Positions 1 through 53,550 of a DNA stretch of 64,000 nt are shown piece by piece. Location of the stretch: the NCBI GenBank assembly GCA_002787355.1, contig PCWN01000007.1:248996-312995 (forward strand). Direction: 5' to 3'. The first letter of the stretch is position 1, and every line of letters begins with the position of its first letter. Source of the DNA: Candidatus Magasanikbacteria bacterium CG11_big_fil_rev_8_21_14_0_20_39_34 (lineage in GTDB: Bacteria; Patescibacteriota; Patescibacteriia; Magasanikbacterales; UBA922). The notes beneath the pieces were generated by a model. It was not told the origin of the DNA and searched no databases. It was given only the letters and a program-made list of their open reading frames with translations. Made by a program: the position numbers and the translations under genes.

Positions 1-598
1 CACCGGGAAGTTCTGCAGAGGCAATGCGTACTTTGAGTGCTTCTTCATAGTCCATGTCATCTAAAATTACAATAGACTCGTAACTATATAAACTATATTC
101 CTGAATAGTCGCATCAATATCTTCATATGATATACCTGAAATTTTTGAAAGCTTTTTGAGAACAAGCTTCTTCTCTTCCTTATTTTGCGGGAGATCTTGT
201 GGAAGAATAACCAATGCAAAGCTTGGTATATTTTCTGTTAATTGAACACCATTTCTATCAAATATCAAACCTCTTTCCGCCTGAATTGGGAGGGTTCTTT
301 GTCGATTTCCCTCTGCGAGTACTCGCATGTCTTCGCCATGTACAATTTGAAGGTAAAAAAGCCGTATGAGCAAAAGTGAAAATACAATACAGATGAATCC
401 AAAAAAAACTCTGTGACCAGAAAAAAGAAAACTTTTTCCTACATGTTCACCACTAAAAACAACTGGGATTTGCTTGTGTGTTCCTTTTTCAAAATTAAAT
501 GAATCCTCGACCCAATTCAGCCTATATCTCCCAAAAAGTTTTGGGAAATTTTCATTGTCTATCTCGAGTCCAAAGAGATTTTTTTTTCCTTGATCCAT
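1..598 (-). CDS. mrdA: Penicillin-binding protein 2 (peptidoglycan transpeptidase), N-terminal part; the gene runs off the window edge
   Basis: The minus-strand ORF starts with ATG at 598..596 and translates as MDQGKKNLFGLEIDNENFPKLFGRYRL..., with an N-terminal TM helix and an ERGLIFDRNGVQL motif typical of the PBP dimerisation domain. It lies immediately downstream of mreBCD in the conserved order. It is absent from the ORF track because it is truncated by the window edge. Confidence 0.6.
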   Translation of the reverse strand, partial: MDQGKKNLFGLEIDNENFPKLFGRYRLNWVEDSFNFEKGTHKQIPVVFSGEHVGKSFLFSGHRVFFGFICIVFSLLLIRLFYLQIVHGEDMRVLAEGNRQRTLPIQAERGLIFDRNGVQLTENIPSFALVILPQDLPQNKEEKKLVLKKLSKISGISYEDIDATIQEYSLYSYESIVILDDMDYEEALKVRIASAELPG

Positions 599-44960: not shown

Positions 44961-45876
44961 TCCCAGCGTCAAGAGCGTCAATATAAACTTCAAGTTCATA
45001 ATTTTCAAAATTGCCGGTTTGTTGAAATGTTTCAATTTTGCCAAATACATAATCTAATTTTTTGATTACTTCTTCTGTTCCTGGAATCCTCAAAGTTTCT
45101 CCAAATTTACCATAACGATTTTCCAAGCCTCTTTTTATCTTTTTATATAGCTTGTGATAATGATTAAAACTAGGCCACGCTAAAGGGTGACCCCATTGAA
45201 CGCCATAAATAAGATTTATCTGATACAGAGAAGGCTTATTTAACAAATCGGCTAATTTTTCATTTTTGAATTTTGTTTTGTGTTCTTTCTCTTCTTTTTG
45301 AATTTCTTTCATAACCATTTCTAATTCATTTCCGAGATGTTTATCTTGCTGACTGATGATATCCGCAAATTTTATGGTTTTACTTTCTGTTTTTGAGTGC
45401 ATCCACAACCTATATCTGAAACCGTCTTTGCTCAAAGATGAGCGGTCAATGGTACAAGAGGTAATTTCGTCATTTTCATACTTTGATTTATTACCTCTAT
45501 TTTCCTTTTTTACAGGGTGTCCGATGGTTTCATTTCTGACTTGTCTAATTTTAAAAAGTTCGGAATATTTATTGTCTGTACAATTAATTTTTTTGCTTAT
45601 ACCAAATAAAGATATTTTCAAAAAGTTTACAGCGTCTTGCTGGATAAAAAGAGCTTGTAAAAGTCCATAGGTTGCTAAATATGGGTTTTTTATAAATAAA
45701 TCGTTCGAATTTTTTTGGAAATCTTCTATTGCCAAGCAGGTATCTTCCAGCGTATCTAATGCCGCACAAAATTGATTCCAGTCGCCACTCTGTTTTCTGG
45801 AATAAACTTGAGTCTTTTTTATTGTGGAGCTATTAAAAAGCTCCCTGATTTGATGGGTGATTTCTGTAACGAGCAT
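44908..45876 (-). CDS. Hypothetical island protein with a HEPN-like Rx5H motif, a possible abortive-infection-type RNase
   Basis: A 322-aa protein. KIRQVRNETIGHP fits the HEPN Rx(4-6)H signature in a predicted helical N-terminal region. Its codon usage is more AT-rich than neighbouring housekeeping genes. No other recognisable domain was seen. Confidence 0.35.
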   Translation of the reverse strand: MLVTEITHQIRELFNSSTIKKTQVYSRKQSGDWNQFCAALDTLEDTCLAIEDFQKNSNDLFIKNPYLATYGLLQALFIQQDAVNFLKISLFGISKKINCTDNKYSELFKIRQVRNETIGHPVKKENRGNKSKYENDEITSCTIDRSSLSKDGFRYRLWMHSKTESKTIKFADIISQQDKHLGNELEMVMKEIQKEEKEHKTKFKNEKLADLLNKPSLYQINLIYGVQWGHPLAWPSFNHYHKLYKKIKRGLENRYGKFGETLRIPGTEEVIKKLDYVFGKIETFQQTGNFENYELEVYIDALDAGINELKTHLAEVDQEFEI

Positions 45877-45923
45877 ATCTTATAAATAAAAAGGAAAGAA
45901 ATTTTTGGTTTTCTGCCGCCGCT

Positions 45924-46058
45924 TCACTCCTCCAAAAAGGCTAATAAGTATAGTTTAACATTTTTGCAGAGTTTACGCCCGCCTTTTCTCCGTCGTTTGC
46001 GTCGGCGCGAGGCGCGACGGTAACTCGGAAGTCCACTCACGCTTCGCAAGCAAATCAT
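45924..46058 (-). CDS. Tiny (44 codon) arginine/lysine-rich ORF in a GC-rich spacer; it may be a structured non-coding element instead
   Basis: It translates as MICLRSVSGLPSYRRASRRRKRRRKGGRKLCKNVKLYLLAFLEE. The ATG is 9 nt downstream of, and in frame with, the TAA stop of the NDT-like gene. The region is locally GC-rich (CGN codons or a GC hairpin CGTCGGCGCGAGGCGCGACG). It is below the ORF-track size cut-off. Confidence 0.2.
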   Translation of the reverse strand: MICLRSVSGLPSYRRASRRRKRRRKGGRKLCKNVKLYLLAFLEE

Positions 46059-46067
46059 ATTTTGTTC

Positions 46068-46575: not shown

Positions 46576-47139
46576 TTACGAGTTGTAATTTCTAAAACTA
46601 TTCCTCATTCCAGCTGCATCATTTAATATTTCGTACTTATTCCCCACAATCCGAAAATGTCTAGAAAAATAATACTTCTTAGAAGAACTGTTTAGAGCCC
46701 AATAGATAATTTCTATTTTAGATGTACCTATTATATCTGTGGGTTTGGTGTTTGGTATTCTATAACTCTTTGAGTGATGTTTAAGACTTTGGTCTGGATA
46801 CAAAATCACACTTTCATCATTGGCTGATTTGCTTTTTTCACCATTGAATTCGGACATCCCGATAAATTGAATAGGGACTTTTCCCACGTTCTTCACAGAA
46901 TAAAAAAACTGTATAAAATCTGTCGTCTCACTCAAATTTTTTCCGTCACCGCTTACAATTAATTCAATATCACGCTCTATTGTTACATATGGGGTTGTAA
47001 ATAGTTCAAGTTGCTTCTCCGACACATTTGAAAGGACGTGCGTTTTATATGTATACCAAATCGTAATTATAACAAGAACTATTGTTGAAAGCGCTTGAAC
47101 AGCAGCCACGTTTTCGTTTAAAAATTTAATTAAATACAT
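46576..47139 (-). CDS. Hypothetical N-terminally membrane-anchored protein
   Basis: A 187-aa protein with one N-terminal TM helix (LSTIVLVIITIWYTY) and a beta-rich soluble part. No motif was recognised. Confidence 0.35.
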   Translation of the reverse strand: MYLIKFLNENVAAVQALSTIVLVIITIWYTYKTHVLSNVSEKQLELFTTPYVTIERDIELIVSGDGKNLSETTDFIQFFYSVKNVGKVPIQFIGMSEFNGEKSKSANDESVILYPDQSLKHHSKSYRIPNTKPTDIIGTSKIEIIYWALNSSSKKYYFSRHFRIVGNKYEILNDAAGMRNSFRNYNS

Positions 47140-47253
47140 AGTTTTAGAAATTATTTCAGCTGACGTCTATGAATAGTCGAAGTTTGAAAGTGCTAAAATG
47201 GGAGCCTTAGCGACCCACCACTGCCAAATTTGGGTGAGTGAGCGTTAAAAAAA

Positions 47254-47487
47254 TTATTTCAAAAATTTGTATTCAATAAATAATCCTATTAGTACAGGCA
47301 CAGTGCCAATAACAATAAGCCAAAACGTTTTAGGACGTTTTTCAATAAATTCATGCAGTATGCGACTTTTTATCATTTTTGTTCCTTGCCCATCAATCTT
47401 TGCACCTTGAATATCGCAATCTTCAAATGTGTTATCTTTTGCCTCTTTTCTGACATGAAGGGAGAATTTTTGATTATTTTTGGTCAT
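47254..47487 (-). CDS. Small tail-anchored membrane protein
   Basis: A 77-aa protein with a C-terminal TM helix (TFWLIVIGTVPVLIGLFIEY). Confidence 0.3.
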   Translation of the reverse strand: MTKNNQKFSLHVRKEAKDNTFEDCDIQGAKIDGQGTKMIKSRILHEFIEKRPKTFWLIVIGTVPVLIGLFIEYKFLK

Positions 47488-47548
47488 ATTTTTGAAATAA
47501 TTTTTACCGAGTGAATCGACTATACTGTATTAGCAGATGTAATGCCAC

Positions 47549-48244
47549 TTAGATTTTACTGCTTAGATGCTTAACAATTTTTTGGATTTCTTTTAGAGAC
47601 TTCTGCATAAGCGTCAATGCAGAAATATTGACACTATCAAATTTGAAATCAACCCACAAAATTCTTTTCACCTGAATTGAAGGATTTGGAAATGGCATAT
47701 TTGTTGTTTGGTCTACTTCAGATCCAAAAATTCTTGCTCCCTTTCCGAATTTTGCAAGTTTCGGATTATAAGACAGGCCGCCACCTTGAATGTGGTCAAC
47801 ATCCACACATTCTTGCTCTTCTCTTGTTTGTTCAATGAGGTCAACATGCTTGTTTCCTATGTTTACATCGTTAAATTGCTTCAACCACATTTGTTCTTGC
47901 CCCTGAAATGGCTGAATTGATAACAAGTATGAATAAAGATCGAGATTACCATCTTTAAGTCCGGGGAACCATTTATTTATACACTTTTCGAAACTTGTCA
48001 AATCGGGAAGGATCGGGAAATAAAAAATCTTGCTTCCTTGATTATTTACAACCGAACTTTCACGAATTTCATTTGCTAGATAGTCAAGTACTGAGCGAAT
48101 ATTTTCAAAAAGATTTTTTATTTCCACCTTCAATTCAGGTTTAATTTGCTTCTTATGCAGGGAATTATTGTATTCCTTTGTGATCTCCTCTAATTGTTGA
48201 GCAGCCTTCTTTAACAGTGCTTTTATACTTTTTGCTCTTTTCAT
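47549..48244 (-). CDS. Hypothetical island protein (231 aa)
   Basis: It is the first gene of the minus-strand island gene string and has no recognisable motif. A helical N-terminus is predicted. Confidence 0.35.
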   Translation of the reverse strand: MKRAKSIKALLKKAAQQLEEITKEYNNSLHKKQIKPELKVEIKNLFENIRSVLDYLANEIRESSVVNNQGSKIFYFPILPDLTSFEKCINKWFPGLKDGNLDLYSYLLSIQPFQGQEQMWLKQFNDVNIGNKHVDLIEQTREEQECVDVDHIQGGGLSYNPKLAKFGKGARIFGSEVDQTTNMPFPNPSIQVKRILWVDFKFDSVNISALTLMQKSLKEIQKIVKHLSSKI

Positions 48245-48332
48245 AATTTTTAGTTAAATGGCACCATTTCCGCTAACGTTTCTAAGTATGTAAAATTTTA
48301 CTGAAATAGTCTGGAAAATTGGGCGATGCCCC

Positions 48333-48361
48333 TTGACGAAGCCGATTAATTTTAATACAAT
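48333..48361 (+). promoter_or_regulatory. Near-consensus sigma70-type promoter (TTGACG-17 nt-TACAAT)
   Basis: TTGACG is at 48333-48338 and TACAAT at 48356-48361, with a 17-nt spacer. No protein-coding gene follows on this strand. Confidence 0.5.
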
Positions 48362-48367
48362 GAATGA

Positions 48368-48556
48368 GACCGCCTTACGTGGCGCCTGCTGTGTAACAGC
48401 CGAAAGGTGCGTGTACCAGTAGTTTCAGGCACGAGGAACTTAAAAATGCTGGGACCAGAATAGAACTTGACCTGCTATTTATAGCAGAGATAGTGATTCC
48501 CTAACCATGCGGTTTCTAGGACTGTCTCGAGATCCATTTGAGGCGGTTTTTTTTTG
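48368..48556 (+). ncRNA. Candidate sRNA of about 190 nt (identity unknown; 6S-like architecture is possible)
   Basis: It lies downstream of the promoter above. It is GC-rich relative to the genome. The 5' ACCGCCU pairs with the 3' AGGCGGU as a closing stem, followed immediately by U9. It has internal hairpins such as CUGCUAUUUAUAGCAG. No ORF is present. Confidence 0.4.
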
Positions 48557-48591
48557 CTAAAAACAAATTACTCCGACATTTTCCTAACTAG

Positions 48592-48678
48592 CGGAGAAGG
48601 CGGGATTCGAACCCGCGGTACGGTTTCCCGTACACATCCTTTCCAAGGATGCGCATTCGACCACTCTGCCACCTCTCC
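48592..48678 (-). tRNA. tRNA-Ser (anticodon GGA), class II with a long variable arm; CCA is not encoded
   Basis: It folds by hand into a cloverleaf. The acceptor stem is GGAGAGG/CTTCTCC, the anticodon stem-loop is CATCC-TTGGAAA-GGATG, the variable arm is TACGG-GAAA-CCGTA, and the T-arm is GCGGG-TTCGAAT-CCCGC. Confidence 0.9.
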
Positions 48679-52771: not shown

Positions 52772-52869
52772 AGTGAATTTAGTCCTATTTTAATACAATG
52801 TAGCCTTCTATGCAAGTTCTCTTCTTGCTCTGAGACACTAGACATTTCTTTTTTTCTATGCTTAAATGA

Positions 52870-53040
52870 AAGAGCTATTGCCCACCACGGCAAAGAGGGG
52901 TTTCCCTGATCGTCAGGGAGTCGGCAGTCCACCAAGTTGGGGCAACCGCGAGGTCTGTGTCCAATGCCGATAAGCGCTTTCTTCCTCGGTCAAAAGCGCT
53001 TACCCTCTTGACCCAACCCCAAAAAAAGGATAAGTATGTA
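52870..53040. ncRNA. GC-rich multi-hairpin structured element of unknown function; strand unresolved
   Basis: It has consecutive perfect hairpins: UUGCC-N7-GGCAA, CCCUGA-UCG-UCAGGG, and AAGCGCUUU-N11-AAAGCGCUU. Its GC content is well above the local background. Both strands carry only short overlapping ORFs. A weak hairpin plus T8 follows at 53043-53070. Confidence 0.3.
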
Positions 53041-53089
53041 AAAAAGCCCTTAATTTAGGCTTTTTTTTGTTTTATACACAGGTCTCCTC

Positions 53090-53118
53090 TTGACAAAATA
53101 TAAAAAATGGTATATATT
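53090..53118 (+). promoter_or_regulatory. Near-consensus sigma70-type promoter (TTGACA-17 nt-TATATT)
   Basis: TTGACA is at 53090-53095 and TATATT at 53113-53118, with a 17-nt spacer. Confidence 0.5.
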
Positions 53119-53123
53119 GGCGA

Positions 53124-53357
53124 GTCGACGTCTGAAGATTCAGGTAGTTGAAGAAAACCGGAAGGACATAGAAGCCTTCAACAAACGGTATTCCGAAAAC
53201 ACCCACACCCGAATCGACGGATTCTCTCACCCTCTGACCGAGGACCACCAGTCTCGACCTTTGCCCGGGGTCACTGGTGATGGAGGGATCGTCTCGAGCT
53301 CCAAGCTCCTGACGTCGACACTCCAATAAAGAGTCTCAATAATGGGGCTTTTTTTGT
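53124..53357 (+). ncRNA. Candidate sRNA of about 230 nt (identity unknown)
   Basis: It lies downstream of the promoter above. It is GC-rich. A 5' GAGUCGACGUC pairs with a 3' GACGUCGAC-A-CUC closing stem. An internal stem is GUUGAAG...CUUCAAC. It ends in GGGGCUUUUUUU. The overlapping 79-aa ORF (53090..53329) starts at TTG inside the -35 box and is rejected as coding. Confidence 0.4.
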
Positions 53358-53421
53358 TTGTACAAAATTTTTTTGTATTGTATAAAGATTGTCTGTCATT
53401 AACTGGATTACGTGCAGGTAG

Positions 53422-53533
53422 GTAGATTGCCACGCTGTATACTCAGCTCGCAATGACAATTTGTCTCTGCCTCCGGATGACCCCCTCCTCTCCGTCATTG
53501 CGAGGAGTCCGTAGAGACGACGTGGCAATCTTC
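53422..53533. repeat. Long nested near-perfect palindrome (stem-loop of about 110 nt) immediately 3' of ligA
   Basis: The outer arms are GTAGATTGCCACG / CGTGGCAATCT(T)C. The inner arms are ACTC-ag-CTCGCAATGAC / GTCATTGCGAG-GAGT. This gives about 26 bp of pairing around a 36-nt C/U-rich loop (GTCTCTGCCTCCGGATGACCCCCTCCTCTCC). Confidence 0.5.
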
Positions 53534-53550
53534 GTGTTAGAAAAGAAATT

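Follow-up and report, generated by a model that had tools for sequence, protein, structure and literature searches.

We describe a candidate structured RNA gene in a 64-kb stretch of genomic DNA – hereafter the window – from Candidatus Magasanikbacteria (Patescibacteria/Candidate Phyla Radiation, CPR), an uncultivated groundwater bacterium. The element lies at 48333–48556 on the + strand, between a low-GC island of five genes without Pfam match and the tRNA-Ser(GGA) gene, and runs from a promoter-like site through a non-coding region with a multi-helix fold to a terminator-like hairpin and T tract. On balance, we lean towards reading this region as a real, self-contained and species-restricted gene for a stable structured small RNA (sRNA) of ~180 nt, a reading drawn from the sequence. 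No single feature is decisive, and the case for an RNA gene rests on features that coincide in order and register. Directly established are the sequence anatomy, the lack of coding potential, the lack of a matching Rfam family and the absence of the RNA from the syntenic site of relatives.

CPR bacteria have tiny genomes and few classical regulators, and most of their lineages are uncultured; to our knowledge, almost nothing is known about their regulatory and structural RNAs. An unannotated promoter-to-terminator RNA gene with a defined multi-helix fold is thus a concrete lead for CPR RNA work. Expression and conservation across a wider clade would make it a new RNA family; if it is a one-species orphan, it would be an ordinary accessory sRNA or noise, with little general consequence.

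Anatomy of the candidate RNA gene

The initial annotation had placed a candidate sRNA between the island and tRNA-Ser under the control of TTGACG-17-TACAAT, and both the location and the hexamers are confirmed by the sequence and a promoter scan. The two hexamers match the consensus at 10 of 12 positions and are separated by the optimal 17-nt spacer, in keeping with a sigma-70-type promoter (two hexamers, 16–18 nt apart) as judged by consensus match only. From sigma-70 promoter geometry, transcription is predicted to start at 48367–48369 (about 48368), 6–8 nt past the –10 hexamer. The convergent tRNA-Ser(GGA) gene has a promoter of its own, TTGACA-17-TATAGT (48778–48750), 400 nt from that of the RNA, and canonical sigma-70-type promoters are therefore evidently in use here. 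As had been claimed, the candidate promoter drives no protein gene: the predicted transcript holds no open reading frame (ORF) of at least 30 aa, and no gene follows on the same strand, the next genes lying on the opposite strand, with the 3' end of tRNA-Ser(GGA) 35 nt from the U tract.

The ends of the predicted RNA are complementary, ACCGCCT at 48369–48375 pairing with AGGCGGT at 48540–48546, and nine T residues (48547–48555) follow directly, exactly as first reported. Our folding extends this pairing to a 10-bp helix, P1, which closes a multi-helix junction with four well-defined hairpins (A–D, see Table 1) in both the minimum free energy (MFE) and the centroid structure. Helix pair probabilities are mostly at least 0.8, and the ensemble is well defined, with a mean base-pair distance of 18. 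Hairpin A could alternatively form a GAAA tetraloop at 48399–48408, and hairpin B carries an 8-nt loop, AGGCACGA, and a 7-nt A-rich bulge, UAAAAAU. The 189-nt + strand folds with an MFE of –61.5 kcal/mol (z –2.93; 1 of 200 dinucleotide shuffles was equally good), and the – strand of the same region folds less well (z –1.54). Thus, the internal hairpins noted earlier are reproduced, and the description of the region as GC-rich holds in relative terms: its G+C content of 49.7% is above that of the window (38.1%) and of the adjoining gene block (33.7%).

P1 stands out from the background of the window. The 5'/3' duplex has an energy of –15.9 kcal/mol, the fraction of 12-mers in the window that pair with the 3' strand as well is 1.6e-4, and this rare complementarity begins exactly at the predicted transcription start. 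The 3' end of the unit is similarly distinctive: the T9 tract is one of three T runs of at least nine in the whole 64 kb, and the local hairpin directly upstream, 48519–48549, is stable (–13.6 kcal/mol, z –3.42), so that by sequence the pair qualifies as an intrinsic (Rho-independent) terminator. The initial annotation had taken the closing stem plus U9 as the terminator; both are present, but so is this ordinary local hairpin. The hairpin and P1 compete for one 3' strand, and the full-length fold with P1 gains 9.4 kcal/mol over the best alternative that leaves the 5' end unpaired. As a helix precedes the U tract in the P1 conformer and in the local-hairpin conformer alike, there is no obvious on/off switch.

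Support for a putative independent non-coding transcription unit comes from this anatomy, and it is from the anatomy that we infer that the RNA is transcribed between the predicted ends, that it refolds and is stable, and how it would act. Housekeeping-sigma RNA polymerase would start at ~48368 from TTGACG-17-TACAAT and stop in the U9 tract, with termination driven first by the fast-forming local hairpin 48519–48549. The released RNA would then refold into its lowest-energy form, its 3' strand pairing with the first 10 nt as P1, and P1 would close the four-hairpin junction with both ends hidden; the RNA should therefore be long-lived. Since the gene stands alone, is missing at the syntenic site of family-level relatives and sits at a tRNA-flanking, cassette-rich variable spot, it may encode an accessory, species-restricted trans-acting RNA rather than a housekeeping RNA of the 6S kind; its fold and exposed loops would serve to contact mRNAs or a partner protein.

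Table 1. Predicted features of the candidate RNA gene and its surroundings, in window coordinates
Feature	Position	Strand	Basis or detail
Left inverted repeat of the 231-aa cassette, TTAGCAGATGTAATGCCAC	47529–47547		
Right inverted repeat of the 231-aa cassette, reverse complement TTAGCGGAAATGGTGCC	48260–48278		
–35-like hexamer TTGACG	48333–48338	+	promoter scan and sequence
–10-like hexamer TACAAT	48356–48361	+	promoter scan and sequence
Predicted RNA, ~180 nt plus U tail	48368–48556	+	no ORF; 49.7% G+C
P1, 5' arm, GACCGCCUUA	48368–48377	+	pairs with 48539–48548; pair probabilities 0.7–1.0
Hairpin A, 11 bp, CGAA bulge	48382–48410	+	pair probabilities 0.80–0.99
Hairpin B, 5+6 bp	48416–48452	+	pair probabilities 0.61–0.99
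Hairpin C, perfect 6-bp stem CUGCUA/UAGCAG, loop UUUA	48472–48487	+	pair probabilities 0.69–0.99
Hairpin D, 7-bp outer stem, internal loop, inner 4+3-bp stem	48488–48527	+	outer-stem probabilities 0.72–0.99
Local terminator hairpin, 13 pairs (several G-U), 5-nt loop	48519–48549	+	terminator scan and fold
P1, 3' arm, UUGAGGCGGUU region	48539–48548	+	fold and duplex energy
T9 tract, U tail of the predicted intrinsic terminator	48547–48555	+	sequence
tRNA-Ser(GGA), convergent with the RNA; context only	48591–48678	–	ARAGORN and Rfam

The candidate RNA is absent from public annotation. The Lgt and 231-aa proteins encoded on its two sides are identical to NCBI COV59_03265 and COV59_03255 of the CG11 groundwater metagenome-assembled genome, and between these two NCBI lists a single locus tag, that of the tRNA. 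The JGI annotation places a 284-nt 'gene' opposite the RNA on two contigs (L005 4254–4537 and L006 5213–5496, corresponding to window 48254–48537, – strand); we consider this a spurious call, as its translation hits a stop after 20 codons.

Conservation, chance and the neighbouring cassettes

To follow the RNA across genomes, we used the adjacent Lgt protein as an anchor. Ten contigs with an identical Lgt were fetched (several samples); seven span the site, and the RNA is 100% identical in all seven. All copies found are thus identical and come from one species, and they therefore hold no covariation information. One of these contigs, the strain variant L007, differs from the window by 9 single-nucleotide polymorphisms in 4.9 kb, with none in the RNA; 0.35 would be expected there, so the count is uninformative. 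The same contig diverges from the window at 45124 leftwards, inside the 322-aa gene, with other genes beyond; the block left of the RNA therefore varies within the population, with the RNA unchanged. The contig of the nearest other organism (L011, Lgt 76% identical) ends inside the tRNA. Four family-level relatives (L012, L013, L128 and L129; Lgt 55–56% identical) keep the order GatCA-LOG-Lgt-tRNA-Ser(GGA), but the sequence on the 3' side of their tRNA is unrelated: we found there a short ORF for a basic protein, an additional tRNA-like copy that is interrupted, a gene that follows immediately or an AT-rich spacer. The interrupted copy, at L012 3122–3320, follows tRNA-Ser(GGA) as a second tRNA-Ser-like sequence broken up by GC-rich insertions; its acceptor and T-arm halves are recognisable, ARAGORN makes no call on it, and either a duplicate that has been disrupted or a copy with an intron could explain it.

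Several results weigh against a functional RNA gene. The initial annotation had named an absence of conservation beforehand as refuting the candidate, and in all four family-level relatives the syntenic flank of tRNA-Ser, the site examined, lacks the RNA; this absence fits a young or acquired gene and, equally, a non-functional sequence. Searches of 131 loci (~650 kb) by single-sequence covariance model, blastn and nhmmer recovered no homolog, and neither the phage and plasmid collections nor five exact-pattern scans of viral contigs returned a match. When the exposed segments of the RNA were compared with 64 ORF start regions of the window as possible mRNA targets, none stood out, the best interaction reaching –15.5 kcal/mol. 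The promoter, described at first as one of the best of the window, is a good match but not an exceptional one, since 31 promoter-like sites in this AT-rich DNA reach at least 10/12. Finally, the stability of the fold is moderate, roughly in the top 3% of windows after correction for composition: the composition-regressed MFE has a residual z of –2.0, equalled by 80 of 2838 windows of the same length (2.8%). Within the window, searches for paralogs, repeats and complementary sites of the RNA gave nothing beyond chance.

These results bear most directly on the possibility that the hexamers, hairpin and T tract are non-functional – a chance assembly or a relic, such as a terminator orphaned next to the tRNA by rearrangements and cassette insertions – and that any transcript is noise, which we regard as rather unlikely. 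Such a reading would account for the lack of homologs and for the frequency of comparable promoters and folds, and synteny breaks off at the 3' flank of the tRNA in all relatives examined. What speaks against it is the arrangement: within 224 nt, a promoter, a start-aligned 10-bp P1 (1.6e-4), four high-probability hairpins, a terminator hairpin (z –3.4) and a rare T9 tract stand in the correct order, in a region whose G+C content exceeds that of its surroundings by 12–16 points without coding.

An sRNA gene as proposed here has familiar counterparts. Like other stand-alone bacterial sRNAs, the candidate combines a sigma-70-type promoter, no ORF and a terminator hairpin with U tract, and it shares with them an intergenic site beside a tRNA gene or variable region and a narrow phylogenetic range; it differs in being unusually structured (five helices), with a sealed 5' end and no obvious single-stranded seed. 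An orphan intergenic sRNA is a familiar kind of element; on present evidence, this particular RNA is new and unconserved.

Next to the RNA, five genes without Pfam match (231, 77, 187, 122 and 322 aa) form the low-GC block. The 231-aa gene (47549–48244, – strand) is divergent from the RNA and is bracketed by imperfect inverted repeats, TTAGCGGAAATGRTGCC upstream and, on the other strand, TTAGCRGATGTRATGCC downstream. The repeat pair is kept around 231-aa homologs of 61–82% identity (L117, L118/L119, L121, L126 and L127) in unrelated neighbourhoods; a gene that retains its repeats amid differing genes behaves as a cassette of ~750 bp, and we therefore think that it looks like a mobile single-gene cassette (~750 bp, 47529–48278). 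More distant homologs (~230 aa) occur in many phyla and, rarely, on viral contigs; they mostly lack flanking repeats (median z –0.4). The protein has a weak PHROG match, and its structural model (predicted local distance difference test score of 90) shows a helical bundle and a beta domain with no match in the PDB.

Inverted repeats also accompany two further genes of the block: a 21-nt pair, 95% complementary, at the 77-aa gene (47249–47269/47485–47505) and a perfect 16-nt pair at the 187-aa gene (46586–46601/47138–47153). They overlap the start and stop regions of the genes (window 46576–47505). As judged by the duplex energy of the 5' and 3' flanks, the 77-aa (–26.0 kcal/mol) and 231-aa (–27.5 kcal/mol) genes lie well beyond the mean of 64 ORFs (–14.7, standard deviation 4.7); the value for the 187-aa gene is just –16.3 kcal/mol, its repeat arms falling partly outside the compared flanks. 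The repeats at the 77-aa and 187-aa genes may reflect either cassette mobility or mRNA end-pairing. Between the 322-aa and 122-aa genes, at 45905–46060, lies a GC-rich (up to 53%), hairpin-prone stretch with GCGAAGC-type motifs, and GC-rich hairpin clusters of similar appearance border the 231-aa cassette in L121 and L126. The candidate RNA sits between the tRNA gene and this stack of small cassettes, outside the one traceable cassette, the right repeat of which ends at 48278, 53 nt short of the RNA promoter.

This neighbourhood raises the possibility that the RNA is the partner – antitoxin-like, guide-like or regulatory – of one of the ORFan proteins encoded next to it (231, 77, 187, 122 or 322 aa). 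The RNA adjoins the Pfam-less block and is divergent from the 231-aa gene, whose homologs, spread over many phyla and rarely found on viral contigs, are distributed as defence or mobile genes are. Yet the RNA is missing at every 231-aa homolog locus examined, including those of 55–82% identity, and the inverted repeats that bound the 231-aa gene exclude it; we consider such a partnership improbable. A type III toxin-antitoxin RNA was rejected, as the candidate contains no tandem and no direct repeats. So were a retron RNA, an omega RNA, a bridge RNA and a tracrRNA: as judged by Pfam and PADLOC, the neighbours include no reverse transcriptase, TnpB/IscB, IS110-type recombinase or cas gene, and PADLOC gave no credible match. 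TIGR-Tas, the only relevant literature match on CPR non-coding RNA, was set aside as well, there being no repeat array and no Nop-domain protein.

Known RNA families, DNA elements and the 6S comparison

We compared the window with the 4227 families of Rfam 15, using the gathering score for the whole window and E≤10 for segments of 371 nt and 197 nt around the RNA. The whole-window search returned nothing besides tRNA. In the two segments, the relaxed threshold yielded terminator look-alikes and tRNA only, the sub-threshold matches being terminator-type models aligned to the hairpin 48519–48549. The family assignments that the initial annotation had suggested seeking in Rfam (6S, signal recognition particle (SRP) RNA and others) were thus not obtained; SRP RNA, RNase P RNA, transfer-messenger RNA (tmRNA) and other Rfam families were discarded for lack of a covariance-model match. 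A tRNA-like or tmRNA-like reading was also considered, the candidate having a 7-bp stem followed by U and A as in tRNA, yet no T-arm precedes the 3' strand, and neither ARAGORN nor Rfam calls a tRNA or tmRNA within the candidate RNA. The candidate resembles bacterial Y RNA and other protein-scaffold RNAs in that its termini form a closing stem, its 3' tail is rich in U and it folds compactly; unlike Y RNA, it has no Rfam match and no tRNA-like module, and no Ro/Rsr-type gene was found among the neighbours that have Pfam matches.

Quite improbable, in our view, is an orphan riboswitch-like sensor. Folding of the junction, possibly helped by a ligand, would stop transcription at U9; otherwise, polymerase would read through into RNA antisense to tRNA-Ser, lgt and LOG. 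Both orphan riboswitch-derived sRNAs and riboswitch-controlled antisense transcripts have precedents (SreA/SreB, Rli55/EutX and AspocR in Listeria, ubiG-mccBA in Clostridium), and the candidate resembles the Listeria examples in its aptamer-like junction closed by P1, its terminator and its convergent genes. A complex junction closed by P1 is common to many aptamers, the convergent genes begin only 35 nt downstream, and the 3' strand of the terminator has two rival partners. Against this, a helix stands right before the U tract in both conformers, so that both are predicted to terminate and no anti-terminator is obvious; moreover, no riboswitch class matches, and no conservation of the candidate was found, whereas riboswitch aptamers are normally conserved widely. 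A conventional riboswitch or cis-regulatory leader was rejected, there being no same-strand gene downstream and no match to an aptamer family.

The region could also act at the level of DNA, as a miniature inverted-repeat element, the remnant of an attachment site or a structured target or landing pad for the neighbouring cassettes. The 3' side of a tRNA gene is a classic integration spot, the candidate has terminal inverted repeats of 7–10 bp, inverted repeats also flank each of the three adjoining genes, and GC-rich, hairpin-rich stretches lie beside the 231-aa cassette in L121 and L126 as well. We nevertheless hold this to be highly improbable: the element occurs once, neither the window nor any of the 131 loci holding a further copy or a fragment of it. 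It shows no target-site duplication, the tRNA 3' end is not repeated, and no integrase or transposase lies nearby. An RNA is also what the promoter, the U tract and the better folding of one strand indicate. A miniature inverted-repeat transposable element or other repeated mobile element was rejected on the same grounds, the element being single-copy across the window and the 131 loci and having no duplication at its ends.

The initial annotation had likened the candidate to 6S RNA on account of a length of about 185–190 nt and paired termini, and had proposed looking for a central bubble. The likeness in outline stands: the predicted RNA of ~180 nt with its 10-bp P1 resembles 6S RNA (ssrS) in length (~180–190 nt), in its paired 5' and 3' ends, in being non-coding and in having a strong promoter of its own. 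The architecture does not follow. Where 6S RNA has long helices on either side of a central bubble, together forming a rod, we find a closed, multi-branched junction of four hairpins. In a rod test that permitted only pairs between the 5' half and the 3' half, the best rod reached –43.6 kcal/mol as compared to –61.4 kcal/mol for the unrestricted fold, a cost of 17.8 kcal/mol, and was weaker than the shuffled mean (–49). An E. coli 6S sequence, used as a rough calibrator, lost 0.1 kcal/mol in the same test (–80.4 vs –80.5). No 6S model matched even at E≤10, and the candidate, unlike a housekeeping RNA, is absent from the syntenic site of four relatives. A divergent 6S RNA, which would imitate an open promoter and so bind the sigma-70 holoenzyme, is therefore scarcely credible, even though 6S sequences are known to diverge strongly. 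The practical outcome is that the candidate should not be annotated as 6S RNA. Among the papers searched, none mentions both the Candidate Phyla Radiation and 6S RNA.

Further RNA-like units

A second unannotated RNA-like unit of the same design lies at 53090–53352 on the + strand (the unit proper at 53119–53352). Its promoter is TTGACA-17-TATATT. The body is GC-rich and ~205 nt long, with ends that form a helix of ~11 bp (GAGUCGACGUC/GACGUCGAC), and a separate terminator hairpin follows; the MFE of the unit is –83 kcal/mol (z –3.66). At E≤10 the unit matches no Rfam family, and neither sequence nor model comparison showed similarity to the candidate RNA. Should the candidate RNA prove to be expressed and conserved beyond this species, the two units together would suggest that Rfam-based annotation overlooks several stable RNAs in each CPR genome.

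In one of the relatives, L013 (Lgt 55% identical), the gatC-ligA gap holds a comparable unit in the same orientation (205–560, reverse strand), with the promoter TTGACA-17-TATGAT, a GC-rich stretch of ~330 nt and a strong terminator, ACGGACAGCGGCCUG...CAGGCCGCUGUCCGU with a U run. This unit matches no Rfam family and has no sequence similarity to the units of the window.

One may ask whether stable, junction-type CPR RNAs form a class yet to be described, with the candidate RNA as the first example to be seen, a suggestion that we regard as doubtful. Members of such a class would have a canonical promoter and paired first and last nucleotides, with the 3' strand serving as terminator first and as closing helix later. 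If this were true, the candidate, the 53119–53352 unit and the L013 unit would together indicate that reduced genomes of this kind harbour structured RNAs that have so far been overlooked.

The gatC-ligA gap of the window (780 nt) contains two more GC-rich, hairpin-rich stretches, at 52830–53070 (+ strand) and 53400–53540, with up to 57–59% G+C. The former ends in a terminator, AAAGCCC...GGCUUUUUUUU; the latter has ends that pair over 11 bp (AGATTGCCACG/CGTGGCAATCT) and a GTCATTGCGAGG-type motif. Another contig, L002, diverges from the window exactly within the 53400–53540 stretch, at 53460; this suggests that the element is repeated or that recombination or assembly has left a breakpoint there.

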